DNA of 64,000 nucleotides from the IMG/VR virus record IMGVR_UViG_3300037010_002844, positions 128,001-192,000 of that record. One strand, 5' to 3'. The notes beneath the pieces are model-generated. The model had not been told where the DNA came from. It saw only the letters and a list, made by a program, of their open reading frames with translations, and made no database searches. The position numbers and the translations under genes are program-made. How positions within the stretch are numbered: position 1 is the first letter of the stretch; each line of letters opens with the position of its first letter. Source of the DNA: a virus. Below are positions 5,238 through 49,477 of the stretch, one piece after another.

Positions 5238-6164
5238 TCACTTGGCTGCAGGCCAAAGAAACGTCACACCCAGCGGCATCCCGACCTCCTCGGAGTGACC
5301 GCACGAAGGACACGAGGTCTCCTGCTTCATCACGATGCCAGGTTCATTGTCGCGAATGTAGTTACGCAGTGCTAGCGAATCACGAGCCGGCATCATGCGA
5401 ACGAAGGCCGCGATCTTGGCGCGGTCTTCGACTCCGTCGATCGAAACAATGCTGTACAGCAAGTTCGTCGTCACGCCGGCCTCGGTCGACAGGCCCAACT
5501 TCTTCTGCTTCTCAGCAGTCGACAGCATCTCTTCCTCATCGCGGCCTGACAGGAAGCGGAAACGAACAGTCTTCTTGCTGTAGGGCAACGTGAACTCGAA
5601 GAGATTCATGCCTTCGGCAACGGGTTCGATCTCTAGACGACGTAGAGGCAGCGCCGCCAAGTTGAACTGGTGAGGTGCCTTGGTCTGACACTCCGGACAC
5701 TCGATCTCGGCGTCGTATTCAGCACCGTAACCGGTGATGCGGACGGCAACCATCAGCGCATTGCGGTCACCGATCAACAGATCACGGGGATCGATGCGCT
5801 TGTCGATCAAGCACGACTTGATCAGTTCCGTGATGACGGTGCCCTTCTTCAACAGAGCCTTGCTCGTCAGGATGTCCTCCTCACGGGCCGTCATGGCACG
5901 AATCTCGACAGTCTCAAGACCGTGCAATGGAGAATCAACGGGGTAGGTCGCGCCGTTTGACGGCAGCGGGACGGTCTCGACTGGGATCTCTAGGCCAAAG
6001 TCTTGTTTAGCCTGAGCCTGTGTCGTTGTCTGGGGAATCCGAGGATCAACGCCGGCGGCGCCCTTGAAGATTTCGTTTCGCTGTTCACGCTGTTCTGACA
6101 TTTGTGGTCCCTTGTGTGGTGATCTTACCCTCCTGTCACCACTGCGTAAATAGGGACCTGGCAC
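5238..6164 (-). CDS. hypothetical protein with two CxxC zinc-ribbon motifs (possible baseplate-hub/tail assembly protein)
   Basis: Contains CPECQ ... CPSCGH pairs ~115 aa apart. Lies between tube and tape-measure genes. The true start is possibly the internal Met of MSEQREQRNEIF. Function is inferred from position only. Confidence 0.45.
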   Translation of the reverse strand: MPGPYLRSGDRRVRSPHKGPQMSEQREQRNEIFKGAAGVDPRIPQTTTQAQAKQDFGLEIPVETVPLPSNGATYPVDSPLHGLETVEIRAMTAREEDILTSKALLKKGTVITELIKSCLIDKRIDPRDLLIGDRNALMVAVRITGYGAEYDAEIECPECQTKAPHQFNLAALPLRRLEIEPVAEGMNLFEFTLPYSKKTVRFRFLSGRDEEEMLSTAEKQKKLGLSTEAGVTTNLLYSIVSIDGVEDRAKIAAFVRMMPARDSLALRNYIRDNEPGIVMKQETSCPSCGHSEEVGMPLGVTFLWPAAK

Positions 6165-7411: not shown

Positions 7412-7903
7412 TTAGAATTGCAGGCACGCGTTGTCGAAGCGCAGTGTTAGGCTGATCTCAGCCGGGCCGCCGTCTTCATACGTCAGTTCACCGAAGTTGA
7501 CCTCGGTGCAGAATGCACCCTTGATGTCCCAAAGTTCCACGACGGTGCCCACGGGATCCAGCAGCTTCAACTGGACGTCACGCTTGTAGAAGTCAGCGTA
7601 ACCAGCACGGCCCGAGACGCTCTCGTAGCACGTACGGATCCACTCCATCACCTGCTGCGCGCCGGACGGTGCAATCGGATCGTGCAACGTCACCGGAATG
7701 GTGTTGAACGTCGTCTTGCCGGCCAGGTAGCGGCGTGAATTGATGAATGGAATCTCGACCTCTTCGGTGGCCACCGTCGGTCGTGAGGTCGTCTTGATGA
7801 TGTAGGCGTCGAGGCCTTCGATCATGAGGACCCAACGGTTCTTGCGCTTCGGCTCGAACTTGTTGGGCAGCATCGATGTAACGTCAAGTGTCTCAGCTGG
7901 CAT
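7412..7903 (-). CDS. tail tube protein (T4 gp19-like)
   Basis: 163 aa, the same size as T4 gp19. It sits immediately downstream of the sheath genes. The C-terminal strand pattern ...ISLTLRFDNACLQF is of the same type as the sheath C-termini. AGGAGAA RBS. Confidence 0.7.
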   Translation of the reverse strand: MPAETLDVTSMLPNKFEPKRKNRWVLMIEGLDAYIIKTTSRPTVATEEVEIPFINSRRYLAGKTTFNTIPVTLHDPIAPSGAQQVMEWIRTCYESVSGRAGYADFYKRDVQLKLLDPVGTVVELWDIKGAFCTEVNFGELTYEDGGPAEISLTLRFDNACLQF

Positions 7904-7924: not shown

Positions 7925-7933
7925 CTAAATATT
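7925..7933 (-). promoter_or_regulatory. variant of conserved upstream element (gene orientation AATATTTAG) ahead of tube gene
   Basis: Reverse complement of ctaaatatt, about 25 nt upstream of the tube ATG. It matches the TAYTTA(C/G) core seen upstream of 10 other genes. Confidence 0.3.
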
Positions 7934-8088
7934 CGACCTTGTCAATTCATCCTCTATGACGTAGAGTGCGCGACTCGTTCTTTTGGACGTCGCCTTCAGC
8001 TTGGAAACACAACCACGAACTTCTGCCGTCTTGTTGAATGGGTCGCTGTGTAGACACATGATGACAACACGGGCCGCGCCTTCAGGTG

Positions 8089-8220
8089 CTAGCTGGTGAG
8101 CGATCTCAAGCTGCCTGTGACATTGTCCATCACGGCATCGAGGGCGCCGGCAAAGTCCTGTCGACCGGCCTCAAGTTTTTCGCGAATGATCCTTCTGATC
8201 TGTCCAATGGTTGCCTTCAT
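8089..8220 (-). CDS. small protein, member of MK(I/A)T..Q(L/I)R.IIRE family (43 aa; not in ORF track)
   Basis: ATG at 8220, TAG at 8091..8089. Translation: MKATIGQIRRIIREKLEAGRQDFAGALDAVMDNVTGSLRSLTS. The N-terminus aligns with the three upstream paralogs. Confidence 0.5.
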   Translation of the reverse strand: MKATIGQIRRIIREKLEAGRQDFAGALDAVMDNVTGSLRSLTS

Positions 8221-8221
8221 C

Positions 8222-8452
8222 TCAACCGCTCTTGCTCGGCTTCAGAAGCCCGACTTGAGACCCAAGAATGGCCCTCGAAAATTCTTCTTTTACTAGACGG
8301 TGTAGCTCCTGTTCGGTAATGCGAGATACACGCGGGTCGGACACAGACTCAGCGAGCGGTACGACCTCAGTGGGCACGAACCCCTCATCACGCAGCTGCA
8401 ATGCTGCCTCTCTGATCAGCTCGCGGAGCCTATTCGGAGAAATGAGTCGCAT
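8222..8452 (-). CDS. small protein, N-terminal motif family member (MRLISPNRLRELIREAALQ)
   Basis: 76 aa, in tandem with its paralogs between the sheath and tube genes. Confidence 0.55.
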   Translation of the reverse strand: MRLISPNRLRELIREAALQLRDEGFVPTEVVPLAESVSDPRVSRITEQELHRLVKEEFSRAILGSQVGLLKPSKSG

Positions 8453-8802
8453 CAGCCGTGCTTACCAACATGGGCCCAAGGATCCTTCGTCAAGGCCGTG
8501 CTTTGGGGATTGCCAAGCCACTTCATCACAGCATCGATGTTGGACTCGATCTGAGTGATTGCCCTCAATAGCTTCTGCGCCTTGTCCATGACGTCGCTGC
8601 CCGGGCCAGCATTCTGCAGCAACTCAGAGATCGCCTTCTTGGCACCCGCCTTGCCGAGCGCCTGTTTAGCAGACGATAGACTCCCGTGGAGCGCCTGCAG
8701 AGGAGCCTGGACCTTGCCTTGTTCCATCGTGATCTCGTCGAGCTCCTGCTCTTCAAGTGTCTCACGGATGATCTGACGGAGCTGCTTTTGGGTGATCTTC
8801 AT
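8452..8802 (-). CDS. small protein, N-terminal motif family member (MKITQKQLRQIIRETLEE)
   Basis: 116 aa. The N-terminal 16 aa are conserved with its paralogs and the C-terminus is divergent. Confidence 0.6.
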   Translation of the reverse strand: MKITQKQLRQIIRETLEEQELDEITMEQGKVQAPLQALHGSLSSAKQALGKAGAKKAISELLQNAGPGSDVMDKAQKLLRAITQIESNIDAVMKWLGNPQSTALTKDPWAHVGKHG

Positions 8803-8828
8803 CTGTTATTTCCCGCTGAATTTGACCA

Positions 8829-9041
8829 TCAGGGCGCGCGCGCGACAATGTCCTCAAATCGAGAACGCTCGAAAGGCCCGTCGCCCAGGGCTTCTGCAGT
8901 CTCAAACGTCATCCTGTTGACCATGTTCAAAACGCGAGACTTGAGCGTGGCCGCGAAGGCGGCCGACAGGGTGCTGATCAACTCAGCCCTGCCGGCTTCT
9001 TCCTTGATGATCTTACGCAGCTTTTGTGAAGTGATCTTCAC
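8829..9041 (-). CDS. small protein, N-terminal motif family member (MKITSQKLRKIIKEEAG)
   Basis: 70 aa, first of the tandem family, directly after the sheath gene. Confidence 0.6.
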   Translation of the reverse strand: MKITSQKLRKIIKEEAGRAELISTLSAAFAATLKSRVLNMVNRMTFETAEALGDGPFERSRFEDIVARAP

Positions 9042-9054
9042 TGTCAGCTCTCAA

Positions 9055-12000
9055 TCACTGCTGGGTGATGTTGTTGGTGACCACGAAGTCCAAGGAGACG
9101 AACTCGATCGACTTGGTCGGCTGGACATAGATCTTACCGCGGATCGTGTTGTTCTCGATGTCCTGCTGCGTCGTGGTGCTGGAGTCGATAATAACCTTGA
9201 ACCGCTCGAGGCCCGCCTGAGCCTGGATGCGCTGCAGACGCGGGGTAACCGCGGCCGTGAAGCGGGCCAGGGTGGCAGCCCTGTTGGGCTCGAAAATGAT
9301 CGTCTGCGAGATGTCGCGGACCTGGCGGCGGATCTCGATCAGCAACCTGCGAACGTTGACGCGATCGAGAGCCGAGGCCGCGGCCTGCAGGGTCTTCTGA
9401 CCCCAAACCACCACGCCGCCCTTCGGGTTGGTGCCACCGACGGCAGTTCCCGGGAAGGCGACCAATGGGTTGATGGCGACATCGTAGAGTGCGTCCATGT
9501 TAGGCTTCGACAGCTGAACACGGGCCTCGAGGACAGTCGGCAACGCACCGCGGGTGACACCGGCTGGAGCAAACCAGGGGTGACCGACCGCATCATTCAA
9601 GGCCAGGGCGCCGAGGACCGCGACAGAAGGTGGCGCGACGACGTTGGTCTTGGTGTTAGGATCCGGCATCACCACGTCTGGGAAGTAGGCAGCGGCGAAG
9701 TTGTTGTCCATCGCGCGGTTGGCGAACGAGTTGGCGGTGTAGGTGACAGACGGCAGCTGCGAATCAGTGAAGACCTCAGTGTCAGTGTTGTCGAACTGCT
9801 CGATGTCCATGATGTAGAGAGCATCAAACCGTTCCTTGACCGCGTCAGCCGCTGCGTTGGTGACGATCGGGTGACGGATGCCAGGGATCGCCAGCAACTG
9901 GATGTCTGTGTTCACCACGTTCTTCATGATTTCCAGCGCCTTGGCGTAGGTCCGGACGTTTGAGCCCTGGTCCCTGCCACGGTTGGTGGCGTTCATGTCA
10001 GCCGTGATGGCTGCGTTGTTGATCTCTGCTGAGTCCTTGTCGAACAGTAGGATTCCGTCGAAGCCGCCTTGCAATAGGAAGCTGAACTTGGCGAACCGAC
10101 GGTTGGCCTGGACGAGATCGTCTGTCTTGAAGGCCCGCGTCTTGTTGGCATCGTTAGCCGTGATCGCACCACCACGCACGTACTGTGCTGAGACCCACTG
10201 CGTCGGGTCAGCCAACGTCGTGGATGCCGTGACGACCTGCAGGTTCTCGAGGGTGAACAGGTTGTTGCAGAACCTGTCGGCATCAATGATGCCCCACGCG
10301 CCGGTGTCGACCGCGCCGGTGTTGTCACCGACAGACACGTTCTGGTTGATCTCCGAGAAGTCCGGGAAGTACTTGGCAAACGACTTCAACGAAGCGTTCT
10401 TCAAGGTCGATGCATTCGGAGTCGCCAGGCTGGCCACGTGCTCGAACTGGACGCCCCAGTAGAGCAATGGGTTGACTTGGACCTTGGCGCCAGAACCTGC
10501 GGTGATGTTGGAACGCATCGGCAGCGGCGGCTCGATTGCGCGCTTCAGGTAGGTGGCCGCAGTCAAGCTGCCGTCAGTGACGCTTGTCAGAGGAGCAGAG
10601 CCAGAGGTGACGAGGTGCTCGACGCCGCGGAAGCCCATGGGCAGTGCCGTCGGATCGACGGTGCCGTTCTCAACCCCAAGATCGACCTCGACGCGGACGA
10701 GGTTCGACTGTGCCGGGTAGTTGCCGTCGAAGACGATCTTCTGGGCCGGCTCGGCGCGGTCGAAGTCGAAGAACACGTGAGCATCGCCGACAATCTTGGC
10801 GATGTAGCGATCCGAGCTCGGATCCAAGTTGACGCCGCGGAACTGTTCCAGCGGCTGCTGAGCAGCATCGCGGTCGTTCCAGTCGCGGAGAACCAGGTCG
10901 AAGGAACCAAACTTGTTGGCTGGGTCCGTCGACGGGGTGATGTTCTCGATCGAGATCTTGTATAGCGTCGAGACATTGGCGCCGGCATCCAGAGCATGCA
11001 ACCGGAAGAGATTGGAAGGCGAGCCACCAAACTTCTGCGAGATGATCCACGGGGACTTAGCGTGGCTGAAACGATCAGTGAAGGCCTCGTAGTTCGGGAC
11101 CGTGCTCGAACCAACGTTGCGTGCAAGAGAAGCTGTCGTCAGGAAGACAGCAGTTTCAGCACCCGGTTTGGGCGCCGTGGCCGCACCTGCACCTGACAGC
11201 GCGGAAACGAGGCCCGAGCCGGTGACCACTGCAGTAGCAGGGTGAACGTCCCAGGATGCATACAGGAAGTGACCAGCCTGCTGAATCTTGTAGGGATCCG
11301 TGTTCAGGACGTTGGCAAAGTAGTTCGGGCTCGTCATGTCGAACGAAGCCGTGATAACGTTCGGGTACAGCGGGTCCGTTCCCTGGTGACCGTTCAACAG
11401 CAGCACGAAGTCCGACTTTGCGACACCTGCGTCCATCAGGACGACGGTGCCGACCAAGCCACCGTGAGCGGTGCCATCGGTAGCAACGAGGTTCGACGGA
11501 GGGGCTGAAGAGTTACCGGCTGTCGAAGAAGACACGCGGAGGATAACGCCCGAGGGGGCCATCAGCATGCCTCGAACGATGACCGCGGCAGTGTCTGCAC
11601 CGGGAGTCGTTGAACCCAATCCTTGGATGCCGGCCGACGAGAAGATAGTCGAACCAGCAGACTCTGACATGAACGCGCCGAGGAAGTAGGCTCGACCCAG
11701 AGGAGAACCCAAAGCGCCCGAATTGGCGTACGGGTTACCGTCCAGCGTGCCATCTGAGGCGCGCGGCAACTGCTGTCCGACAGTGAAACCAGCGCCGTTG
11801 ACCGAGCCGTCATCATTCCGCGTGCGGCCATCGCCTGCGCCCAGGACCCTGAGATAGGTCACTGCCTGCGCCTTGCGCATCCACTCAGTGACAGCCAACG
11901 GGCCGAACTTCTTGCCGTCGGTCTTACCGAACTTGGCGTAGAAGTCATCGATCGTGCCGACGGTGACCGGGATGAATGCAGGTCCTTTCACTGCCGTGCC

Positions 12001-12102
12001 AATAACGCCTGCGGGAACACCGACTGGTTCCTGGGTCACTGGACCCGAAAGATCGATTTCCCTTGCCGTCACGCCAGCGCTTCCGAACTTTAGCTGTGCC
12101 AT
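9055..12102 (-). CDS. tail sheath protein, paralog B (T4 gp18-like, 1015 aa)
   Basis: The C-terminal domain matches T4 gp18 closely: W.APAG.TRG ... LYD.AINP ... GQKT ... DRVNVRRL ... IYVQPTKSIEFVSLDFVVT. The N-terminus is paralogous to the upstream sheath gene. There are large insertions relative to the 659-aa T4 protein. Confidence 0.9.
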   Translation of the reverse strand: MAQLKFGSAGVTAREIDLSGPVTQEPVGVPAGVIGTAVKGPAFIPVTVGTIDDFYAKFGKTDGKKFGPLAVTEWMRKAQAVTYLRVLGAGDGRTRNDDGSVNGAGFTVGQQLPRASDGTLDGNPYANSGALGSPLGRAYFLGAFMSESAGSTIFSSAGIQGLGSTTPGADTAAVIVRGMLMAPSGVILRVSSSTAGNSSAPPSNLVATDGTAHGGLVGTVVLMDAGVAKSDFVLLLNGHQGTDPLYPNVITASFDMTSPNYFANVLNTDPYKIQQAGHFLYASWDVHPATAVVTGSGLVSALSGAGAATAPKPGAETAVFLTTASLARNVGSSTVPNYEAFTDRFSHAKSPWIISQKFGGSPSNLFRLHALDAGANVSTLYKISIENITPSTDPANKFGSFDLVLRDWNDRDAAQQPLEQFRGVNLDPSSDRYIAKIVGDAHVFFDFDRAEPAQKIVFDGNYPAQSNLVRVEVDLGVENGTVDPTALPMGFRGVEHLVTSGSAPLTSVTDGSLTAATYLKRAIEPPLPMRSNITAGSGAKVQVNPLLYWGVQFEHVASLATPNASTLKNASLKSFAKYFPDFSEINQNVSVGDNTGAVDTGAWGIIDADRFCNNLFTLENLQVVTASTTLADPTQWVSAQYVRGGAITANDANKTRAFKTDDLVQANRRFAKFSFLLQGGFDGILLFDKDSAEINNAAITADMNATNRGRDQGSNVRTYAKALEIMKNVVNTDIQLLAIPGIRHPIVTNAAADAVKERFDALYIMDIEQFDNTDTEVFTDSQLPSVTYTANSFANRAMDNNFAAAYFPDVVMPDPNTKTNVVAPPSVAVLGALALNDAVGHPWFAPAGVTRGALPTVLEARVQLSKPNMDALYDVAINPLVAFPGTAVGGTNPKGGVVVWGQKTLQAAASALDRVNVRRLLIEIRRQVRDISQTIIFEPNRAATLARFTAAVTPRLQRIQAQAGLERFKVIIDSSTTTQQDIENNTIRGKIYVQPTKSIEFVSLDFVVTNNITQQ

Positions 12103-12154: not shown

Positions 12155-12202
12155 CGAAAGAAAGCGGCCCTAAACTAGAGCCAAGCTGCTAGTTAGGGCC
12201 GC
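12155..12202 (-). terminator. rho-independent terminator-like hairpin between the two sheath genes
   Basis: Imperfect inverted repeat gcggccctaaactag (12164..12178) / ctagttagggccgc (12189..12202). On the minus strand it is followed by TTTCTTTCG. Confidence 0.5.
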
Positions 12203-12225: not shown

Positions 12226-15200
12226 TCACACGAACTGGACGCCGCTGTTAGTGATGATGAAGTCGATCGCGATATACTCGATGACCCTCGTCGGCACCAC
12301 GACGATCCGACCGCGGAGGCGGTTGAGGTCGATGTCTTCCTGCGTGTTGTTCGTCTCGTTCATGATAACTTGGAACGCTTCCACGCCAGCCTGGGACTGA
12401 ATTAGACCTAGTTGCAGGATTGCGTCGGCCACGAACTTGTTACGCACCTCGGGGGTGTTCTGCTCAAAGACCAGCTTCTGAGCGATACCCATGATGATGC
12501 GCTTGACCTCCAGGAGGAGGCGACGGACGTTGACCCTGTCGAGTGCCGACTTGTTGATCTGCAACGTCTTCTGGCCATAGATGACGAAGCCTAGCCTCGG
12601 GAAGGTTGCGATCGGGTTGATTCGTGAATCGTAGAGCCTGTCACGATCGGGCACATTGAGACGCACGCTGACGTTGGTGACAAAGTCCAGCGCTGCGCGG
12701 TTGAAGCCGGCAGGCGCGAACCATGGGTAGGCAACGCGATCGTTGAAGGCCAAGGCACCCATGGCGGCGACCGAGGCCGGAACCTTGACGCGGCGGCGGT
12801 TGGTCGCATCGTCAACGAAGACGTCCGGGTAGTACGTGCCAGCGTAGTTATTGTCCAACGCTCGAGCATCGAACTGGTTTGCCGTCTGATCGATCGAGGG
12901 CCGTGCTGCCGAGTCATCGTACAGACGGTTCGAGGAATCATCGTAGGATGGGATGTCCATCACGTAGTAGGCCAGACCGTAGTCGCGGACCTTGTTGAGG
13001 GCATACTCTGTGATAAAGCTCTCGCGGATGCCCGGCAACGCCAGGATGTTCGTGTTGACGACCAGAGGATCAGTCATGATGTCGATTGCCGTCTTGTAGG
13101 AAGCGACCGTCGCATTCTGCTGACCCGTCCCGGTCGGGTTGTAACCCAGACCAGGCGCCGAGTAACCGACCGCAGCACCGCCGCCAGCGTCGAAGGACGA
13201 GGCCTTGTCATTCATCCTCCTCGCATCGCGGTCGAGAACATTGACGCCGTCCCAGCCACCAGCCATGAAGGTGATGAACTTGGTGAACTGCGAAAAGCGA
13301 TTGAAGTCCGAGGCGCTGCCTTGAGCCAACAAGGTGGCCAATGTGACACGCGGTCCGAGGACCGGATCCTTGATGGTGTAGTTGGTCAGGTCGAGCTTGC
13401 CGTTACGGATGTAAGCTGCTTCCTTCATGTGATCCTGAACCGACGAGGTGATGTCAGTCAGGGCACCATTGGACAGTGCAACCTTCGCCAACGTGAACTT
13501 GTTGTTGTTCAGTTGGTCTGCGCCCGAGCCAGAGACCAAGGCGTCCAACTTAGGAATGCCCATGAACTTGGTGTACGACTCGAGCAGACCGTTCTTGTCG
13601 TTGATGAGGTTGGGATTGAGCGGCAGAGTGTTGCGCTCAAACTTGACGCCCCAGTAGAACTGGCTGAGTGTCAGCTCAGTCGAACCGGGCTGGCCAAGCC
13701 AGGCTGCGCCGGCCGGAGCATCGCCCTTCGTCACCTTGGTGCGGAAAGGAACGGGCGGGATGATCGAACCCGACAGGGAAGACGCGGAACCCACGCCCAG
13801 GACGCCAGCCAACCGTGCAGTGGCGGAAGACGGTGAAGCGTCGGTCAACAGGTCGTTGGTCTTCGGGACCACCGCGCCGCGGAAGCCGAAGGGTAGCGAC
13901 TTCTGAGGCACCAAAGCACGCTCAACCTGGTCCGCGATGACAACGCGGACATACTGCGAGACGTTCGGGTACTTGCCTGTGGCGACCACGCGGCGTTCAG
14001 AGTCCAACGTCGTGTCAAAGTTATAGCTGACCTTGCGATCGCCGATCAACTTGCCGATGTAGTGATCTGACATCGGATCCAGTGAACAGCCTGGGAACAT
14101 CTCCAGGACCAACGGATTGGTGTCCGTGTCGTTCCAATCGCGGATCTGGACGGTGAAGGTGCCGTACGGGTTGGAATCGTCCAGCGAAGCCTTGAGGTCC
14201 GTGATGGCGATCTTGAAGAGGTTGTTGGCGTATTCGCCGTCGTCCAATGCCTCGAACTTGAAGAGGTCGTACTCTGTCGTGCCGAATGGCTGCGAGATGA
14301 AGTACGTCGTGGACGGTGCACGGTAACGCGTGTCGAAGGCTCCAAAGACCTTCCTCATCGGAAGGGTCTTGTCACCCGAGGTGCTGCTGGTGTTGTTGGA
14401 GCCCGAGAGGACGCCGACCACAGTCGCAGTGGCGAGCTCATCATCGACCGGGAAGTCTGCATAGACCAGGTGCTGCTCCTGGACGAACTTGTCAGGATCC
14501 GTGTTCAAGATCTTGGCGAAGTAGTCTGGGCTCGTCGGATTAAGTGAGGCCGTGAAGATCCTGACGCCCGGGTTGCCATCCGTGTTCCAGAAGGCATTGC
14601 CCAAGGTCGAAGAAATCGCGAGTTTGAACTTGCCACCAACCATCAAGGCCGAGTCAACGTTGCTGCCGTTGAAGGCGCCGACGGCGGTGCCGTTGCCATC
14701 CAGGACCATGAGGCGCGCGGTGGTCGGCAGCATCACCATGCCGCGGACCAGGTTGACGGTCGATCCCGAGTAGGAATCGTTGTCCGTGAACATCGGGATT
14801 CCATAGGCCTCATCGCTCTGCAAGGTGTGCTGAGCTGCCAAGAACTGGATTGCGCCGTTGTGGCGGCCCAGCTTGTCGTCAACGGCCGGAGTGCCATCCA
14901 GGTGCATGCCAGCCGAGAGAACTCGACCCGTCTGCAACGTGTTGGCGATGTCTGACTGCGTTGCGTTGGCACCCGCGCCCAGGACCCTGAGATAGGTCAA
15001 TGCGCTGCGATGCTTTAGAAACTCGTTGACCGCATACGGACCAAAGAGCTTTGGATCAAGGTTGCCGAATGTGGCAATGAACTGATCGAAGTTCCCGACC
15101 GTGACAGGGACGAACGCAGGTCCCCTGTTTGCGGTGCCGACAACGCCGGCAGGCGTTCCGACCGGACCGACGGGTGTCGGGGTCGAAATGTCAATCTCGC

Positions 15201-15240
15201 GCTCGAAAAAGTTGGGCGACCTGAAAGTCTGCTCGGGCAT
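12226..15240 (-). CDS. tail sheath protein, paralog A (T4 gp18-like, 1004 aa)
   Basis: The N-terminus (PAGVVGTANRGPAFVPVTVG...LTYLRVLGAG) and the C-terminus (LDRVNVRRLLLEVKR...VVVPTRVIEYIAIDFIITNSG) are both homologous to paralog B and to T4 gp18. Confidence 0.9.
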   Translation of the reverse strand: MPEQTFRSPNFFEREIDISTPTPVGPVGTPAGVVGTANRGPAFVPVTVGNFDQFIATFGNLDPKLFGPYAVNEFLKHRSALTYLRVLGAGANATQSDIANTLQTGRVLSAGMHLDGTPAVDDKLGRHNGAIQFLAAQHTLQSDEAYGIPMFTDNDSYSGSTVNLVRGMVMLPTTARLMVLDGNGTAVGAFNGSNVDSALMVGGKFKLAISSTLGNAFWNTDGNPGVRIFTASLNPTSPDYFAKILNTDPDKFVQEQHLVYADFPVDDELATATVVGVLSGSNNTSSTSGDKTLPMRKVFGAFDTRYRAPSTTYFISQPFGTTEYDLFKFEALDDGEYANNLFKIAITDLKASLDDSNPYGTFTVQIRDWNDTDTNPLVLEMFPGCSLDPMSDHYIGKLIGDRKVSYNFDTTLDSERRVVATGKYPNVSQYVRVVIADQVERALVPQKSLPFGFRGAVVPKTNDLLTDASPSSATARLAGVLGVGSASSLSGSIIPPVPFRTKVTKGDAPAGAAWLGQPGSTELTLSQFYWGVKFERNTLPLNPNLINDKNGLLESYTKFMGIPKLDALVSGSGADQLNNNKFTLAKVALSNGALTDITSSVQDHMKEAAYIRNGKLDLTNYTIKDPVLGPRVTLATLLAQGSASDFNRFSQFTKFITFMAGGWDGVNVLDRDARRMNDKASSFDAGGGAAVGYSAPGLGYNPTGTGQQNATVASYKTAIDIMTDPLVVNTNILALPGIRESFITEYALNKVRDYGLAYYVMDIPSYDDSSNRLYDDSAARPSIDQTANQFDARALDNNYAGTYYPDVFVDDATNRRRVKVPASVAAMGALAFNDRVAYPWFAPAGFNRAALDFVTNVSVRLNVPDRDRLYDSRINPIATFPRLGFVIYGQKTLQINKSALDRVNVRRLLLEVKRIIMGIAQKLVFEQNTPEVRNKFVADAILQLGLIQSQAGVEAFQVIMNETNNTQEDIDLNRLRGRIVVVPTRVIEYIAIDFIITNSGVQFV

Positions 15241-34402: not shown

Positions 34403-34774
34403 TGGTGGAGGCGCCCGGAATCGAACCGGGGTCCGTAACAGATCCTCTGAGGACCTCATCCACAGGCTTGGTCCGTCTTGTTGCTCAACCTCCGGACGGG
34501 TCTAGCGACGCGAAATTTAGCGAGCTGGTCACCAACTCGACACTACGTTTTACGTCCAGTGCTTTGACGTGTTCCGCTTAACGTCCGGTTCCCCGACGTT
34601 TTCCCTGGCTTTCTGTTTCTAGGCGCCAGGACCCCATTCCTCAGGCCGCGAGGGCGAGAGGAGCAACACCATTGTCGTTGGCGTTTATACGTCACATGGG
34701 TTTTGAACTGGTCCCTCGTGCACCAGTGCCTGCAGTCTACAGTCTCAATGCCACGTCGAAGCCTAGTCGCCCCC
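34403..34774 (-). ncRNA. ssrA: tmRNA (ssrA), one-piece, about 372 nt
   Basis: Minus-strand RNA starts GGGGGCGACUAGGCUUCGACGUGG (compare E. coli GGGGCUGAUUCUGGAUUCGACGGG). It ends ...GGACCCCGGUUCGAUUCCGGGCGCCUCCACCA, a T-arm plus a 7-bp acceptor stem with a G3:U70 wobble. The internal tag ORF after ...GUAUAAAC reads GCC AAC GAC AAU GGU GUU GCU CCU CUC GCC CUC GCG GCC UGA = ANDNGVAPLALAA (34641..34682), ending in the canonical ALAA. Confidence 0.9.
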
Positions 34775-36795: not shown

Positions 36796-38697
36796 TCAGA
36801 TGACGTTCATGTCCAACACTGTGACGGTCCCGTAGAAGTCCGTGCGGACCATCTTCTTGCCGTATCGGGTCATGACACCCTTGCGCGGCGTGAAGTCTTC
36901 CGGCGCAAAAATCGTCGGGGTGACGATCAGTGGCACGTACGGGGCGTACACGTAACCCGTCTCGAGATAGCTGCCGCCCTTGTAGCCGATCAGGATCTTG
37001 TTGCGGGGGAAGTACGGGTCCTTGTAGACCGTGAAGCGGTTGGACACCGTGCCGATCGCTTCCGCACCAATGGTAAACGGAGAGCCAACCTGTCCCTCGC
37101 CATCGATCGAGAACTTCGGCTTGTACAGCGTGGAAGCCTCGAGGATGGTGCAGACGTCCGGGCCGGTGACCATAAAGTTGGCCGAGCCGCGAAGGGTCTT
37201 ACGGTGAATGGTGTTCGCCACGTCGATGATCGTCTCGATCAACGTCTCGTACCACTCGCGGACCGTGCCCGTGAATTGCGGGCCGATACTCAAGGAGCTC
37301 GCCAGCTGCTGACGGTCACCCGTCAGCTTGTTCACGAAGCGGCCCGGCGAACGCGACCAGAAGAAGTTCGCGCCGTTGGCCTGAGAGACGAGATCATTCA
37401 AGATCTCGCGGTCGATCTCGAGAGCGATCTGCTCCGAAAGGATGCTCGTCAGCTCGACCTCAGCGTCCATCGAGTGGTACGCGTTGAGGTCCTGTGCGAG
37501 TTCAGGCGACCAGCGAGCGCGGAGCCTGCGGGTTGTCGCGGTGATTGCGATCGACTCGATCTTGATATCGATCTCGGGGATGGCCGGAGCCGGGGTCACC
37601 GAGAAGTCCGTCTCGAAGGAGGGAACAGTCAAGGTCGCGCCCGAGCCACCATCGACCATGAGGGCGTCGGCGATCGCCATCGAAACCTTCTGCGTCGCCG
37701 TGTTCAGCGTTGGAACCGAGCCGCCGTTCGACAGCTTCAGCACGAACTGAATGTGCGAACCATTCAGCGGGTTCGGCGTGAAGACCGAGCCGTTCCAGTC
37801 ACCGCGCTTGTTCAGACGACGGAGGTTCAGCAGGCCCTTGCCCGACTGGTAGGAGTCACCCCACTCAACGGCGCCGTTGTTCGCCTGGAAGCCGAAGAGA
37901 GCGATCTGCTCCGGAGCAAGGAAGTCACCCTTCGGGATCTGGGCTGCGATTGCCGCGACCGAGAGGTGGACGAAGGTTACATCCAGGAGGTTGCTGCCCA
38001 GGTCGACCTCAACCTGCGGATCGAACTGCAACATGCGGGCGTTGGTGCCCGAGAAGTCCGTGCTCGAGGCCACGATGCCGCCGGCGGCCCAAGCGTTGTT
38101 GGCACCGGTCCATGCGCCAAGGTCGAGGTTCGAACCCGAGACACCCAGCGAGGCCGAGTGCACCTTCGAGTAACCGACATTCACCAGGTCGTACATACCA
38201 CCCGTGGCGAGTGATCCAGACTGGATGCCCTTGCCGGTCGGGTTGTTGTAGATCGACTGGCCACGCTGGTAAGTCTCGTAGGCCGAGGAGTTACTAAGCT
38301 GCGAGCCAGCATCACCACCAACGTTCGAGCCGTAGGTGTAATCGAGATAGAAGATCAGACCAGACGGTAGGCTCATCGGCTGAATCGAGACAAGCTCGTT
38401 TGCAACGAGGCCACCGAAGACGCGGCGGACGATCGGGAAGGCGATGTTCGAGAAGCCCTGGATCTGACCCGAGGAAGCGACAGCGCCGCCGCCAGTGGAC
38501 AGGGAGTTCGACTCCTTCAGGACCTGGGCAGCCTGGTTCTCCAGGAGCTGCGCCATCGTCTCGCGCTTGAAACCGTCGAGACCGCGGAGCAAGCCAGTAC
38601 GGCTCCACTTCTCAACAAGACGGGCACGCTCAGCACCGACGTGCTTCTCGCGGATGCCCTGGGCCAGCTGGTCCAGTGTAAAAAACTTTGAAGACAT
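36796..38697 (-). CDS. major capsid protein (T4 gp23-like)
   Basis: VSIQPMSLPSGLIFYLDYTYG vs T4 gp23 GVQPMNSPTGQVFALRAVYG. SPELAQDLNAYHSMDAEVELTSILSEQIALEIDREI vs gp23 SIELAQDLRAVHGMDADAELSGILATEIMLEINREV. GYKGGSYLETGYVYAPYVPL...TRYG vs gp23 GYKGPNEMDAGIYYAPYVAL...TRYG. Confidence 0.9.
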   Translation of the reverse strand: MSSKFFTLDQLAQGIREKHVGAERARLVEKWSRTGLLRGLDGFKRETMAQLLENQAAQVLKESNSLSTGGGAVASSGQIQGFSNIAFPIVRRVFGGLVANELVSIQPMSLPSGLIFYLDYTYGSNVGGDAGSQLSNSSAYETYQRGQSIYNNPTGKGIQSGSLATGGMYDLVNVGYSKVHSASLGVSGSNLDLGAWTGANNAWAAGGIVASSTDFSGTNARMLQFDPQVEVDLGSNLLDVTFVHLSVAAIAAQIPKGDFLAPEQIALFGFQANNGAVEWGDSYQSGKGLLNLRRLNKRGDWNGSVFTPNPLNGSHIQFVLKLSNGGSVPTLNTATQKVSMAIADALMVDGGSGATLTVPSFETDFSVTPAPAIPEIDIKIESIAITATTRRLRARWSPELAQDLNAYHSMDAEVELTSILSEQIALEIDREILNDLVSQANGANFFWSRSPGRFVNKLTGDRQQLASSLSIGPQFTGTVREWYETLIETIIDVANTIHRKTLRGSANFMVTGPDVCTILEASTLYKPKFSIDGEGQVGSPFTIGAEAIGTVSNRFTVYKDPYFPRNKILIGYKGGSYLETGYVYAPYVPLIVTPTIFAPEDFTPRKGVMTRYGKKMVRTDFYGTVTVLDMNVI

Positions 38698-38747: not shown

Positions 38748-40751
38748 TCACTTGATGCCAGCGAGGCGTGCCCATCGATCCGTCTCGTAGCCCTCATCGA
38801 GCTTAGTCGAGGCGGGGCGAGTTGCCCGTGAGGCCGAACCGATGACCTTGCGGCCGGCGGACTCTACCAGAGGACGGGAAGTGCCTGCCAAAGTCTTGGT
38901 CAGGCTCTCGTAGATGAGCTTGGCCTCACGGAGGCTCTTCGCCTCATCGAGCCGCTCGATGATCTCAGCCTTCTGCTTGCGCGAGAGTGCCTCGTTCTGG
39001 AGCAACTTGTTCGTGAAGACCAGCTTCGCGTTGAACAGATTCGTTTCTGCCAACTTGTTGCGGAGGTTTGCGTCGGCCTTTCCTTCCGCGGGCCGGATCG
39101 GGCTGCCATTCAGGCGAGCACCATTGCGAGACGCGACTTCCGCCAGCGTCTTCGTCATCTTCTTGACACGCATCACCGACTCGGTGAAGCGGCCGTGCAG
39201 GGCAGCGTGCTCCTTCTTTAGGGCAGCAACCTTACGTGAATCCTTCTTTGCCGTCGCACGAGTGGCTTCCTTCTTCAAGGCAGCAGCGCGGGTCTTAATC
39301 CTCTCCTGCAGGCGCTTCTCGAAGCCGACGCGACGCTTCAGCGCCTCCATCGTTGCACCTGGCTCGCGCGATTCCTTGCCAGACTCAGCGCCCGGACCCA
39401 TCGAAGCCGGAGCGACATTGCCGCCCGCCTCACGAGAATCCTCGGCCTGATCCATTCCGAAGTCCGTCTCATCAAGCTGGTCATCGTCCTGGTCGTCGTC
39501 GCCTTCATCCATCGTCAGTTCGCCATCGATCTCGTCGAGCTGGTCGTCATCCTCGTCACCCTCATCGGACTCCGTGGTGACCTCACCGTCGAGCCAGGGA
39601 TCGCCTTCCGACTTGCCGCCGCCGAACTGATCAATGACTGCGTCAACGCCGGCGCCCTTGGTGGACGGGACCGCATCCTCGCGGAGGGACTTCATCCGAG
39701 CAATCTCACGGCGGAGCATGCTCTCGTCAATTTCGACAATCGTGTCGTCGCTGAGCCGGCGTGACTCCATCTGGTCATCCTGACCCTGGTCCTCACCGCC
39801 CATGTCGAGGTCGCCAAGATCCATGTCCTCGCCACCCTCTTCATCGCCTTCTTCGCCGCCTTCTTCGCCGGCGCCGAGGTCAAGATCTTCACCGCCCTCG
39901 CCGTCTTCGTCTTCGCCAGTGATCAAGTCAACACCGACCGAATCAAGGTCAATCTCATCGGGCAGGCCAGTGAGCTTCAGCGTCACATCGCCTTCATTCA
40001 TCAAATCTTTGAGGCTCTTCTTCGACATCTTCTGCTCCTGGAGCTTGCTGAGTTCTTTGAAGTACGTTTCGAGTTTCGCTTCGTATGAACTCTTCCGTGC
40101 GGGATCCGTTACCGCCTCCTGCACGTAGTCATACATATTCTCCACTCGTGAAATCATATGAGTGATTTGCTCTGAGTAACCACGAGACTCCTTGACCACC
40201 TTATGGGCGGCCTTGAATGCTTGCAGTTGCTCACCGAGCCGGTAGAGACCGGCTTCGAGTTCCTTGATGATTCCTGACTTGGTTGCCTTGGCGACCGGCG
40301 TCAAGGCTTCCACGGATTCAAGGCTAAGCTCGTATTCATCTCCATCGACTGACGTAGGCTGCCCAAAGACAGGTGCAGGGACGGCTGCACCGATGGGGTC
40401 TGTCGCCAACGCATCAAGGTCGAGCGTGACCTTTCCTTCTGCATCAGGGACTGAGATGGCAGCCGCCGCCGTGCCACCATCGCCGGCTGCAGGAACCGCG
40501 CCGACGGGAGCAGTGTCAGTGACCAAGTCGCCCGGCTTGTCCGGGGTGCCCGGAGCACCTGAAACGATTTCAACGACTTCGACATCATCGTCATCATCGA
40601 AATCACCGTGCTCCTTGAGGAGCTCCTTCTCGATCAGATCCCGAATCCTCGGGGTCACTGCCTCGATCAGGGTACGCCTAGCATTATCCTCAGCGACTTC
40701 CTTCAATCGCTTGGCATCTGCTAGAGCCTCTTCGTACAGCTGCTTTGACAT
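38748..40751 (-). CDS. prohead scaffolding protein (gp22-like, acidic coiled-coil)
   Basis: 667 aa, extremely acidic (DDDDDVEVVE, EEGGEEGDEEGGEDMDLGDLDMGGEDQG), coiled-coil. It lies between the protease and the MCP, as in the T4 head module. The N-terminus contains I/L-x-E protease-site-like motifs. Confidence 0.55.
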   Translation of the reverse strand: MSKQLYEEALADAKRLKEVAEDNARRTLIEAVTPRIRDLIEKELLKEHGDFDDDDDVEVVEIVSGAPGTPDKPGDLVTDTAPVGAVPAAGDGGTAAAAISVPDAEGKVTLDLDALATDPIGAAVPAPVFGQPTSVDGDEYELSLESVEALTPVAKATKSGIIKELEAGLYRLGEQLQAFKAAHKVVKESRGYSEQITHMISRVENMYDYVQEAVTDPARKSSYEAKLETYFKELSKLQEQKMSKKSLKDLMNEGDVTLKLTGLPDEIDLDSVGVDLITGEDEDGEGGEDLDLGAGEEGGEEGDEEGGEDMDLGDLDMGGEDQGQDDQMESRRLSDDTIVEIDESMLRREIARMKSLREDAVPSTKGAGVDAVIDQFGGGKSEGDPWLDGEVTTESDEGDEDDDQLDEIDGELTMDEGDDDQDDDQLDETDFGMDQAEDSREAGGNVAPASMGPGAESGKESREPGATMEALKRRVGFEKRLQERIKTRAAALKKEATRATAKKDSRKVAALKKEHAALHGRFTESVMRVKKMTKTLAEVASRNGARLNGSPIRPAEGKADANLRNKLAETNLFNAKLVFTNKLLQNEALSRKQKAEIIERLDEAKSLREAKLIYESLTKTLAGTSRPLVESAGRKVIGSASRATRPASTKLDEGYETDRWARLAGIK

Positions 40752-41380: not shown

Positions 41381-41632
41381 TCAGACGCCCTTACGGATCG
41401 ACTTCATAACCCGGGCCCTGGTCTCGACGATCTTGTTGAGACGAGCGCGAAGGCGCAACTCTTCGACCTTCAACGCCTTGGCGTAGTCGATCTTCTTCTC
41501 AAGAGCGTCAGCATACTCGTCCGCATCCACCTCGTCGGTGTCCTTGGCGCGCTTCTCCGGGTCTTCCATGTCCCCGAACTTACCGACTTCTTCTTCAATG
41601 ATCTTCTTGAGTAGCTTTGACGTGAGCTTCAT
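41381..41632 (-). CDS. small protein, N-terminal motif family member (MKLTSKLLKKIIEEEVG); prohead-core-like position
   Basis: 83 aa. The N-terminus aligns with the tandem family at 8089..9041. The gene is located inside the head module between the protease and the scaffold, like T4 gp67/gp68. Confidence 0.55.
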   Translation of the reverse strand: MKLTSKLLKKIIEEEVGKFGDMEDPEKRAKDTDEVDADEYADALEKKIDYAKALKVEELRLRARLNKIVETRARVMKSIRKGV

Positions 41633-41686: not shown

Positions 41687-42160
41687 TTACGCGGTTTTCT
41701 TGGCCGGTGCATCCATGAAAGCCAGGTTGGCCCACTTTGACGCCGCCTCTTCACCAAAAACCTCTTCAGGTGAGCCAACGAACTTTTCTTCCTGCACGAC
41801 GCGGGACTGGGTGCCTTCAGACGGACGAGCCGCTGAGTCTCCGGCGCCCAACATCTTGGGCAAGGTCGTCATGGCGGTGTCTGCCAGAATGTCTGCCATC
41901 AGCGCGTTGCCGCGTGCCTCAGCTTTGATGGCCTGAGCCAGTGCCTCAGTCGGGCGTCGCCCGTTGGGCAATGTCTGCATGTCAAGCGGCGACTTTCCTC
42001 GAGCGACCGGACGCTGAGGAGCGCGAGATTCAGTGACGGGCAGCGTCATTCCCATCGAAGCGCCAGCACCCGATCCCAGGCCTTCCTGCAAGATCTCAAC
42101 GAGGCACTCTTTGACGATTGCCTTCAGTTGCTGACGTGACATTTTGCCTGTTCCAGACAT
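41687..42160 (-). CDS. hypothetical head-module protein (possible prohead core protein)
   Basis: 157 aa. N-terminal ...QQLKAIVKECLVEILQEG carries an (L/I)xE motif. Ala/Gly-rich. Confidence 0.35.
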   Translation of the reverse strand: MSGTGKMSRQQLKAIVKECLVEILQEGLGSGAGASMGMTLPVTESRAPQRPVARGKSPLDMQTLPNGRRPTEALAQAIKAEARGNALMADILADTAMTTLPKMLGAGDSAARPSEGTQSRVVQEEKFVGSPEEVFGEEAASKWANLAFMDAPAKKTA

Positions 42161-42162
42161 GA

Positions 42163-42666
42163 TTACCCCATCGCCTTTTTCGAAAGATTTTTGTGGGCCA
42201 TCCTGCGCTCCATTGGGGAGGCACGATCGAGCATCAAGACACCATTTAGGTGGTCGACCTCGTGCTGCACAATTCGCGCCAAGAAACCGTTGAGGAAGGC
42301 GTGTTGAGTCTGCCCGGAGACGTCCTGGTACTCGATTTCAATCTCCGTCGAACGAGCAACATTGACAGCAACTCCAGGAATCGACAGGCAACCCTCTGGC
42401 CCGAACTCGACTTCCTTGGAAGACCAGACAATCACGGGATTGACCATGAAGATCATCTCACAAGCTTGTTCACCTGCTGACGGATCGACAACAATCAAAC
42501 GTTGATTGATGCCAACCTGTGGAGCGGCTAGGCCAACGCCGCGTGAGGCGTACATGGTCTCGGCCATCTTCTCGAGTTGGATCTTGAGCTCGGGCCCAAA
42601 GTCATCGACACGGTCGCAGGTCGCCTGCAAGCCCTGGTCGGGGAAGAGAACGACCTGCATGATCAA
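42163..42666 (-). CDS. def: peptide deformylase
   Basis: All three PDF motifs are present: GVGLAAPQVG, EGCLSIPG, QHEVDHLNG. Confidence 0.9.
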   Translation of the reverse strand: MIMQVVLFPDQGLQATCDRVDDFGPELKIQLEKMAETMYASRGVGLAAPQVGINQRLIVVDPSAGEQACEMIFMVNPVIVWSSKEVEFGPEGCLSIPGVAVNVARSTEIEIEYQDVSGQTQHAFLNGFLARIVQHEVDHLNGVLMLDRASPMERRMAHKNLSKKAMG

Positions 42667-43073: not shown

Positions 43074-43736
43074 TTACCTCTTGTACGACAGGATGTCGTT
43101 TAGAACCCGGTCAATCCGGTCGCTGCGGTTGAAGATCCGCTTCAGCTCGCCATCGCTTAGCTGGCGACCTTCTGGAATCATGAAGGCACCAGGCGTTGAA
43201 GGCTCAGAAACGTAGTCCCAACAGATCAACTGAAAGTCATCCTGAACCACGTAGTAGTCGCCATCCTTCCGAGTTGACCCCACGCCCCGCGAGGAGATAC
43301 CCAACTTGACGTTGCTCTCGGCCAACGACTGCAGGATCTGACCCGAGGGGGTATTCAGGATCTCGACGGTTCCCATCACTGTTCCGTTCTCGAGGTAGGC
43401 CTCACGGACAATGTGGGAAACGTTCTTCAGGTTGATGACCGAGGAATCAGGGTGATCGAGCTCACCAAGAGCACGATTCTCAATGATGAACTTCTGGTAG
43501 TTCCTGACCTCGCGCTCCAACACACGGAGCGGATAGATTCGGCCGTTCTGGTTTAGGGTGTCTGCCTTCTGCAGGATTCCCTTCATCAGGATCTTCTTGA
43601 CAGCGGGCACCTTGACAGCGTTGCCCTGAGAATCTTCAGTAATGGTCTCAGGCTTGACGACCTCGGTGACCAGCTTGTAGTCAAAGATGTCGTAGGTATT
43701 CAGTAGCCTCTGGTTGCTCATGACATCACTCCTCAC
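43074..43736 (-). CDS. prohead core protease (T4 gp21-like)
   Basis: QNGRIYPLRVLEREV ... GELDHPDSSVINLKNVSH vs T4 gp21 LNGRIYPKEVLDNAI ... GEFDHPDSHSINLKNVSH. Confidence 0.9.
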   Translation of the reverse strand: MRSDVMSNQRLLNTYDIFDYKLVTEVVKPETITEDSQGNAVKVPAVKKILMKGILQKADTLNQNGRIYPLRVLEREVRNYQKFIIENRALGELDHPDSSVINLKNVSHIVREAYLENGTVMGTVEILNTPSGQILQSLAESNVKLGISSRGVGSTRKDGDYYVVQDDFQLICWDYVSEPSTPGAFMIPEGRQLSDGELKRIFNRSDRIDRVLNDILSYKR

Positions 43737-44580
43737 CGTTTAGTTCGGTACTCAACTTGGTGTAAAGCATGAAGCGAGTCACTGTCTCATCATTGACCAC
43801 ATCGAGGGTCTCGGAGATCAGGCGCTCTCGGGCCTCGTTCAGCTTTTCATTGACGTACTTGTTAGCGTTTGCTGCAGTGTACTCGTCCATTCGTTGCAAC
43901 AGGTCAGACTTGATCTCTGCCAGTTTCTTGTGAATGACGGTCGGATCATCGTGAGCGGCCGAAAAGACATACGCCTTGACGAGTGACTTCTGATCATCGT
44001 TCAGGACACCAGCGTACTTCTCGTTCAACTTCTTTGTCATGACCTTCATCAACAGGCGAGCAGTTCCGTTAGACTCTTCACTGATGACATGATCATCAGC
44101 CTCTGGTCGTTCAGACACCAACCACTGGACCAACTGGTCCTCGTAGGTCGCCATCCTCGACAAGTCCTTGTCGGTCGATCGCCAATCATTGAGCAGCGTC
44201 TGCACGGTGGCATACATCCTGTACTCATTGATCTGTTGATCATAGAAGTTGTCATCTTTGATCGAGTAGTTGATGTGCTTGATGAGCAGCGACTTCTCGC
44301 GGTCCAGAGTCTGGATGTCGTGAGATCGGGCCGCCGAGCGCGCCTCGTTCAGGATGTTAGCAGCGACTGCCTCTGACGTCACCTTCGTCTTAATCAACGA
44401 ATTGACGAGCCTAAACTCTCGGTACAGCTCAGAACCAGGCTTGAAGTGCTTTCGGAGGATCTTCAACGCCACGGCAGACTTCTTCTGGTTGCCCTCGACG
44501 AGGGCGGTCGAAATGGTGCGGACAAGGAACTCGTAGAGTAGTCCAGCATTACGCTTCTTGTTGTGGCCCTTGCTGCTCAT
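43726..44580 (-). CDS. hypothetical head protein (prohead core / gp67-gp68 position)
   Basis: 284 aa, lying between the portal and the protease. The N-terminus contains LVEG (an L-x-E site). Confidence 0.35.
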   Translation of the reverse strand: MSSKGHNKKRNAGLLYEFLVRTISTALVEGNQKKSAVALKILRKHFKPGSELYREFRLVNSLIKTKVTSEAVAANILNEARSAARSHDIQTLDREKSLLIKHINYSIKDDNFYDQQINEYRMYATVQTLLNDWRSTDKDLSRMATYEDQLVQWLVSERPEADDHVISEESNGTARLLMKVMTKKLNEKYAGVLNDDQKSLVKAYVFSAAHDDPTVIHKKLAEIKSDLLQRMDEYTAANANKYVNEKLNEARERLISETLDVVNDETVTRFMLYTKLSTELNGEE

Positions 44581-49165: not shown

Positions 49166-49477
49166 TCAAACGTCCCCTTCACCCTTCACGGGCTTCAAAG
49201 AAACCTTCTTTGGTTCGACCTTCTTCTTCTCGACGTAGGATCCAGGCGTACTTACCATGTCCTCGAGAATCTTTTCCATCTGTGCAAGATGAGGCGTCAG
49301 CGCATTGATCATCGGCCCGTTGGCTGACTTCTGAAATACCTCGACCGCCGCCAACAGCTTGGAGGCGCCATTGACGACTTCACGAATTGATGCATGGTCG
49401 ACGGCCTCGTTGACCGAGGAAGACAGTTCCTCAGCAATGATCTTCCGAAGACGTGGTAGGGTAATCTTGTTGCTCAT
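49166..49477 (-). CDS. small protein, N-terminal motif family member (MSNKITLPRLRKIIAEEL)
   Basis: 103 aa. It has the conserved upstream element CAATACTTACAC and an AGAAGGT RBS. It lies between the terminase and portal genes. Confidence 0.55.
   Translation of the reverse strand: MSNKITLPRLRKIIAEELSSSVNEAVDHASIREVVNGASKLLAAVEVFQKSANGPMINALTPHLAQMEKILEDMVSTPGSYVEKKKVEPKKVSLKPVKGEGDV

Follow-up and report, generated by a model that had tools for sequence, protein, structure and literature searches.

The window analysed here is a stretch of 64,000 nucleotides of the IMG/VR virus record IMGVR_UViG_3300037010_002844 (positions 128,001 to 192,000), with a GC content of 55% and with essentially every convincing gene on the minus strand. 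Between its tail sheath and tail tube genes lie four consecutive small open reading frames (ORFs) whose products share a short N-terminus, called the leader in the following. The coordinates and sequences given for these four ORFs in a preliminary description of the locus are correct, and the two further leader copies mentioned there, at the start of p83 and p103, are present as well (Table 1). The number of six members was too low: the leader, M-[KR]-[IL]-T-x-x-Q-L-[RK]-x-I-[IV]-x-E, occurs eight times in the window, in seven minus-strand ORFs, the additional occurrences belonging to p157 and to an internal copy within leader gene 3. For scans an 18-residue hidden Markov model (HMM) was built from leader copies. 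In a six-frame scan of the window the leader copies, each of them on the coding strand, reached 19.6-27 bits, whereas the next-best match scored 8.3 bits; thus, the pattern is far beyond chance. Judged from its genes, the window covers the virion genes of a myovirus distantly resembling T4; the T4-like nature of this phage and its gp21-type protease are supported by the Pfam matches of its capsid and protease genes (Table 1).

Table 1 Leader genes and other virion genes of the window (nucleotide positions within the 64,000-nt window; aa, amino acids)
Feature	Position	Strand	Details
Baseplate hub	5238-6164	-	Part of the virion-gene block
Tail tube gene, gp19-type	7412-7903	-	E 2.9e-6; downstream flank of the tandem leader genes
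Leader gene 4, C-terminal half	7925-8128	-	Other reading frame; HRQLEIAHQLAPEGAARVVIMCLHSDPFNKTAEVRGCVSKLK; tblastn E 2e-13, 1e-14
Leader gene 4, N-terminal fragment	8089-8220	-	43 aa; MKATIGQIRRIIRE; frame broken after about ...MDNVTG
Leader gene 3	8222-8452	-	76 aa; two leader copies, N-terminal MRLISPNRLRELIRE (8402-8452) and internal SRITEQELHRLVKEE (8273-8326)
Leader gene 2	8452-8802	-	116 aa; N-terminus MKITQKQLRQIIRETLEE; leader MKITQKQLRQIIRE
Leader gene 1	8829-9041	-	70 aa; GTG start, 13 nt past the sheath stop codon; (M)KITSQKLRKIIKEE
Tail sheath gene	9055-12102	-	Pfam Phage_sheath_1C, E 1.5e-8; upstream flank of the tandem leader genes
Second tail sheath paralogue	12226-15240	-	Adjacent to the first
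Major capsid protein, gp23-type	36796-38697	-	633 aa; Pfam Gp23, E 1e-74
Putative scaffold/core protein	38748-40751	-	667 aa; acidic, coiled-coil-like
p83	41381-41632	-	MKLTSKLLKKIIEEEV; conserved head-module leader protein
p157	41687-42160	-	Seventh leader ORF; MSGTGKMSRQQLKAIVKE; conserved head-module leader protein
Prohead serine protease, T4 gp21-type	43074-43736	-	Peptidase_S77, E 6.2e-25; proposed processing enzyme
Portal, gp20-type	44577-49088	-	Pfam; two HNH inteins
p103	49166-49477	-	MSNKITLPRLRKIIAEEL; conserved leader protein between large terminase and portal
Large terminase, T4-type	49518-51146	-	Part of the virion-gene block

The leader of gene 1 reads (M)KITSQKLRKIIKE, and the body behind it has no relatives among the sampled loci. 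The 116-aa product of gene 2 carries a conserved C-terminal TKDPWAHVGK and was met on seven metagenomic contigs, the longest of 309 kb; its Joint Genome Institute (JGI) name 'seryl-tRNA synthetase' appears to be a spurious automatic annotation, as do names like 'lipoate synthase' or 'CheZ' given to relatives of p103. The doubled leader of gene 3 is kept in a 53-aa homologue of a relative (locus L001). The 43-aa ORF, which had been taken for a gene, is the front half of a frameshifted gene whose family has products of about 95-115 aa (tblastn E 2e-13). Full-length relatives of 94-115 aa (L007, L019) align with 8089-8220 and then, in another frame, with about 7994-8119, and they are matched jointly by the 43-aa ORF and the downstream ORF 7925-8059. 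Since the same 43-aa ORF is called in independent assemblies, the frameshift is genuine and not a read error. The split gene is either a pseudogene or a recoding event; when the junction was read by eye, no obvious slippery heptamer was seen in it.

Related loci with homologues of the tube (L007-L086) or of the protease (L087-L166) were collected. They represent a large uncultured clade with contigs of up to 340 kb and gave 254 HMM matches of at least 12 bits, all on the coding strand. In 166 of the 207 unique copies the leader sits exactly on an ATG, and in 93% it lies within 4 residues of one; a handful of copies are internal second copies. Loci collected from IMG/VR with a degenerate DNA pattern for the leader showed it on the start codon in 351 of 359 copies, and over about 300 related metagenomic loci the share of leaders at a start codon is 80-98%. 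The consensus of 158 unique copies is M-[KR]-[IL]-T-x-x-Q-L-[RK]-x-I-[IV]-[KRE]-E-[ECA]. Codons at the conserved positions vary freely, Leu8 being written with all six Leu codons and Thr4 with all four, which places the selection on the peptide and not on the RNA.

Behind this N-terminus the proteins differ widely. When 230 unique leader proteins were clustered by BLAST, they fell into 79 body clusters (59 singletons), the three big ones being p157, p83 and p103, and 366 unique leader proteins of the IMG/VR pattern loci formed 257 body clusters. The notion of a shared N-terminus on unrelated remainders, made for the window, therefore holds for these samples too. The bodies are from 43 to more than 400 aa long, with a median of 86 aa.

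In 71 relatives the gap between the sheath and tube genes ranges from 23 bp, without any gene, to 3.4 kb, and where small ORFs are present in it, most start with the leader. Some relatives have arrays of 9-11 consecutive genes beside the tube gene, each starting with MKITKRQLRRIIKEE (L071, 2425-5694; L083, 3063-6143; L065, 4503-7419), with unrelated bodies and often with overlapping stop and start codons. Ten pattern matches within 8 kb were found in each of L303 and L307. The gap also harbours other insertions. Five relatives (L010, L012, L040, L049, L050) contain GIY-YIG-like homing endonuclease ORFs there, as judged by eye (about 700-1750 in locus coordinates; e.g. MFIVYKHINRVNGKVYIGYT), and eight (L029-L031, L043, L044, L048, L051, L066) an insert of about 1.7 kb without a long plus-strand ORF. 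These ORFs and inserts mark the gap as a general insertion hot spot. On the contig of P0003 (L006), a Pfam GIY-YIG gene lies directly upstream of the homologue of the 116-aa protein.

Domain searches of the leader proteins were mostly negative. Among 73 diverse leader proteins neither a common Pfam family nor a PHROG match was found, 118 of 121 diverse bodies scanned lacked a recognisable domain, 48 large leader proteins gave no PADLOC match, and toxin or immunity domains were not detected in the leader proteins scanned; Pfam and PHROG scans of the small proteins of the window gave sub-threshold matches only. With so few recognisable domains, an 'effector' role of the bodies is speculation. 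Among the 48 large members, one contains the AAA_33 P-loop kinase domain in full (profile positions 1-141 of 143; E 5.5e-13), starting at residue 28 immediately behind the leader, one gives a 2H-phosphoesterase match of borderline score (tRNA_lig_CPD, 22.9 bits at a cut-off of 23) and one has DUF6745 repeats. At locus L281 (plus strand) the borderline 2H phosphoesterase (297-797) and the AAA_33 P-loop kinase (794-1513) are leader-tagged neighbours, a pair reminiscent of RNA-repair/healing or cyclic-nucleotide degrading enzymes. A Dps-like body, an impression gained by eye from one leader protein, received no support from Pfam.

AlphaFold models were obtained for the 116-aa protein and for p103, both of them small helical bundles. 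In the former, a three-helix body (residues 28-97; predicted local distance difference test, pLDDT, 71-87) follows a low-confidence leader helix and a low-confidence linker. The p103 model (mean pLDDT 83.6) consists of a long helix at residues 7-51 and two shorter helices, with the leader in the first quarter of the long helix. Fold searches with both models and a sequence search of the PDB returned nothing at E <= 0.001.

IMG/VR and cellular genomes were scanned with the degenerate DNA pattern. In IMG/VR more than 120 stretches matched, on contigs with a GC content of 30-58%, and 46 of 80 pattern loci encode homologues (25-60% identity) of the terminase, portal, protease, capsid or neighbour genes of the window. 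In 596 Gb of bacterial and archaeal genomes only 20 stretches matched, clustered and all on contigs of metagenome-assembled genomes (MAGs), of which one of 305 kb has at least 16 leader copies and another of 101 kb has 13; isolate bacterial genomes in this set had none. Contigs with many leader genes are NHDW01000006.1 (305,838 bp, labelled as a Methylococcaceae MAG; L296, L304, L307, L310) and PBIO01000025.1 (labelled as a Halobacteriovorax MAG; L298, L303). The leader-bearing MAG contigs are probably mis-binned large phage genomes.

The best protein matches of the window were found in the uncultured 484-kb phage LR756508 (capsid identity 48%), the closest cultured phages being Flavobacterium phage immuto (43%) and Microcystis phage Mel-JY01 (33%). 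LR756508 is complete and shows where the leader genes are located in a whole genome. At 10 bits or more it has 23 leader matches, 21 of them at start codons and each on the strand of the structural genes, and 19 of the 23 are placed inside the 85-kb block from terminase to baseplate (binomial P = 2e-11). One copy follows right after the terminase, the position of p103, and three right after the protease, the position of p157 and p83; four weak copies lie outside the structural block. Phage immuto has one leader copy, and none was found in the gene 17-24 region of T4 or in the first 50 kb of Mel-JY01.

The preliminary description had stated that everything behind the leader diverges completely and had regarded all members as variable cargo. 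Complete divergence applies to the tandem four, and does not apply to p83, p157 and p103, each of which belongs to a well-conserved orthologous family and is a core head-module protein. With few exceptions, the 29 longest protease loci have p157 and then p83 behind the protease gene and ahead of p187, the putative scaffold gene and the capsid gene, and p103 between the genes for the large terminase and the portal. A scaffold or core role of the 667-aa protein is suggested solely by its position between protease and capsid gene. The true start of p157 is likely Met7 (42142), giving MSRQQLKAIVKECLVEILQEGLG, because the otherwise identical protein P0117 from another assembly starts there. Its N-terminus contains three [LIV]-x-E motifs with four-residue spacing (IVKE-CLVE-ILQE), followed by an invariant GLG. 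In the public protein collection the p157 family comprises 3284 proteins, none of which bears a functional name.

The leader ends in a conserved motif. In the 158 unique copies, position 12 is always Ile, Val or Leu and position 14 is Glu in 154; when positions 13-15 were left free in the scan, position 14 was Glu in 121 of 128 copies and Asp in 3. T4 gp21 cuts after L/I-x-E, and Asp in place of Glu blocks processing of the T4 capsid-targeting sequence (CTS; PMC9026906). The suggestion that the end of the leader follows this rule was thus well founded, as it is [IV]-x-Glu with Glu in 95-97% of the copies. In addition, the capsid protein of the window has two clade-invariant L-x-E sites, LLE53/N and LKE62/S (nt 38512-38547; the slash marks the predicted cut), which bracket the residue aligned to the maturation cut of T4 gp23, and its propeptide would be cleaved at these sites.

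T-even internal proteins (IPs) have only the 10-residue CTS in common, which is removed by gp21 (PMC3012670, PMC9026906); the first ten residues of IPIII suffice to bring foreign proteins into the prohead core, where gp21 then removes them (PMC9026906, PMC3012670). Like the CTS of IPI, IPII and IPIII, the leader would be a short N-terminal propeptide on otherwise unrelated small proteins, with a hydrophobic-x-Glu end and a gp21-type protease. The variable sheath-tube gap resembles the hyper-variable polymorphic IP loci of T-even phages, and the leader is portable onto enzymes, as is the CTS in engineered T4 fusions (PMC9026906). The two differ in length, 14 residues against 10, the leader being far more conserved, and in scale, with up to 11 leader genes per array, hundreds of body families and genes placed inside the structural block. 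The likeness does not extend to the sequence: the preliminary description had compared the leader with the T4 CTS MKTYQEFIAE, and the leader HMM gave only -2 to -5 bits on the N-terminus of T4 IPIII. Leader proteins therefore look like the T4 CTS system in function and are not a member of it by sequence, CTS similarity and basic bodies both being missing.

The sequences show the leader to be N-terminal and portable, under selection as a peptide, limited to phages and to their virion-gene block, and equipped with a gp21-type ending. With [IV]-x-Glu at a fixed distance from Met1, an S77 protease encoded nearby and a location among virion genes, targeting to the prohead and proteolytic removal are taken as the likeliest function, and the leader is most likely a portable address tag for the assembling head. 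More specifically, and with a confidence that stays somewhat short of even, we favour a capsid-targeting propeptide which is removed by the protease and which is CTS-like in function and non-homologous. The leader proteins would be made late, along with the structural genes, and the amphipathic leader helix would dock them on the scaffold or core within the prohead. There the gp21-type S77 protease would cut after the near-invariant Glu14, with Ile/Val12 as the third residue before the cut (P3), and free the bodies inside the capsid. In such a scheme p157, p83 and p103 would be prohead-core or assembly components, in a role like that of gp67 and gp68 in T4, and the fast-turning-over members between sheath and tube would remain with the DNA as internal proteins and might reach the host cell. 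Both their injection and an anti-defence role are speculative.

Several observations weigh against a removed capsid-targeting propeptide. L/I-x-E is short and common in any charged helix. Asp is missing at position 15 of the leader too, and as it is equally avoided at this neighbouring position, the preference for Glu over Asp at position 14 is only suggestive. The residue after the proposed cut (P1') is usually Glu in the leader, whereas it is Ser or Asn at the predicted capsid sites of the same phage and Ala in known T4 sites. The leader HMM revealed no similarity to the N-termini of the T4 CTS, gp22, gp67 and gp68. In the p103 model the leader and a helix of the body form one uninterrupted helix. 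The leader bodies are mildly acidic, with a median isoelectric point of 5.3 and values above 8 in only 23%, whereas the T4 IPs accompanying the DNA (IPII, IPIII) are basic (PMC9026906). Many leader arrays adjoin tail genes and not head genes, and the phage collection of 50,697 records contains no cultured member of the lineage. Two candidate links to head proteins were rejected. A resemblance to the leader, noted by eye at the N-terminus of the capsid protein (MKxFTLDQLAQGIRE) and at residues 31-45 of the scaffold (VTPRIRDLIEKELL), amounted to -2 bits with the leader HMM, the level of unrelated proteins, and homology of p83 and p157 to gp67 and gp68 received hhalign probabilities of 1.2% (p83 family against gp67) and 0.5% (p157 family against gp68).

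The similarity of p83 and p157 (about 81 and about 141-157 aa) to gp67 and gp68 (80 and 141 aa) is thus one of size and place, all four being small proteins in the portal-protease-scaffold-capsid cluster. T4 gp67 and gp68 are cleaved by gp21 (PMC9026906). The gene order differs, T4 genes 67 and 68 standing before the protease gene and p157 and p83 after it. In the giant phages phiKZ, 201phi2-1 and SPN3US, many head-internal proteins are cut after Glu by a diverged gp21-like protease at redundant propeptide sites (PMC9026906, PMC5694885). The triple [LIV]-x-E of p157 is similar to such redundant sites. Propeptides of these giant phages are long and are not known to share a single short leader, the lineage is unrelated, and the cleavage motif of phiKZ is S/A/G-x-E, unlike L/I-x-E.

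Alternatively, the leader could be a docking helix of virion assembly that is not cleaved and leaves its proteins permanently attached to a shared structural partner (scaffold, portal, capsid interior or tail/baseplate), the Glu being kept for a salt bridge. We consider this rather unlikely. Confinement to the virion block is equally expected for such an anchor, many arrays are found beside sheath, tube and baseplate genes, the modelled p103 leader runs on into the body helix, and avoidance of Asp at position 15 as at 14 would reflect a general helix preference. The partner would, however, have to accept hundreds of unrelated bodies in 0 to 11 copies per locus, and it would be coincidental that a phage whose head protease is Glu-specific has [IV]-x-E at a constant spacing from Met1. 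The three stacked [LIV]-x-E motifs of p157 also speak against it, as they resemble the redundant propeptide sites of phiKZ (PMC9026906).

A partner outside the virion is less probable still. The leader would then be a tag for a chaperone, for degradation or stability, for localisation or for oligomerisation, and its proteins would act in the infected cell without being packaged. Acidic ORFan bodies without a structural-protein signature are in line with this explanation, as are the four weak copies outside the structural block of LR756508, and the few enzymes (AAA_33 kinase, marginal 2H phosphoesterase) would be useful in the producing cell too. It is difficult to reconcile with the strong same-strand clustering in the virion block and with the three members that are head-module core genes, and it leaves the protease-type ending without a reason.

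That the leader has no signal function and is only the last recognisable helix of one fast-diverging paralogue family seems very improbable, although duplication is suggested by the tandem arrays, small bodies predominate and both modelled ones are helical. The leader precedes a complete, independently evolved AAA_33 domain, it occurs twice within single ORFs, the proteins vary in length from 43 to more than 400 aa without detectable similarity between the 79 and 257 clusters, and the leader is nearly identical over genomes of 30-58% GC. Its persistence while the bodies decay to such a degree would demand separate selection on the leader. Finally, a reading of the leader as helix 1 of a DNA-binding domain already known (DEK_C, DUF5760), or as an element of the RNA at gene starts, is effectively refuted, because the weak Pfam matches of the 116-aa protein (17.1 bits at a cut-off of 24.8, E 0.005, and 16.3 bits at a cut-off of 27, E 0.011, respectively) are below the gathering score and recur at E <= 0.01 in 1 and 0 of the 73 diverse leader proteins, and because codons at the conserved positions vary freely.

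On the basis of a removed capsid-targeting propeptide, the leader might represent a lineage-wide capsid addressing code, by which large uncultured T4-like phages load a quickly changing set of unrelated ORFan proteins and occasional enzymes, among them a P-loop kinase and perhaps a 2H phosphoesterase, for co-injection with their DNA, new cargo being gained by fusion or recombination at the leader. This wider view is possible and at present doubtful. The lineage concerned comprises abundant uncultured T4-like phages with a GC content of 30-58% and genomes of 200-480 kb. If the addressing code were true, the injected proteome of each phage could be read directly from its sequence. If the leader is a capsid-targeting propeptide, its 14 residues would suffice to pick out, in metagenomes alone, the proteins that an entire uncultured lineage packages and perhaps injects, and hundreds of ORFan families would be foremost candidates for functions in early host take-over or counter-defence. 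A single address with interchangeable cargo, as designed in T4, would then be general in the T4 superfamily, reinvented with another sequence and far expanded. The leader would also be a candidate tag to load foreign proteins into such capsids, and it offers a first handle on the conserved unnamed head-module families.

A comparable logic of a constant address and interchangeable payloads in tandem arrays is known from polymorphic toxin and cassette systems (PMC3482391); the leader proteins differ from these in being small separate viral ORFs. The leader itself was found undescribed in full-text literature searches. For related 293-331-kb freshwater phages, conserved hypothetical genes around terminase, portal, protease and capsid have been reported, and a shared N-terminus is unmentioned in the consulted part of that report (bioRxiv 10.1101/2021.10.11.463225). 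The principle is familiar; the novelty lies in sequence, lineage and scale.

A nucleotide search with the window region and a distant relative against the 50,697 phage records gave no match. The T4 late promoter TATAAATA was not found in the window, and a promoter and terminator scan showed no minus-strand terminator between sheath and tube. A terminator-like hairpin (12165-12183) separates the two sheath paralogues, which are about 1000 aa each (1015 and 1004 aa) and both have sheath C-terminal domains. The portal reaches its length of 1503 aa through two intein-splicing regions with an HNH_3 endonuclease in each (Pfam). The spacing of the N- and C-terminal parts of the portal differs among relatives, which indicates that the intein content differs. 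Within the head-morphogenesis cluster, a peptide deformylase gene (42163-42666, minus strand; PHROG 2890, E 1e-42) lies between the protease and p157 and is found in only some relatives. In addition, a phage-encoded transfer-messenger RNA (tmRNA) was predicted by ARAGORN at 34403-34774 (minus strand), with the tag peptide ANDNGVAPLALAA.

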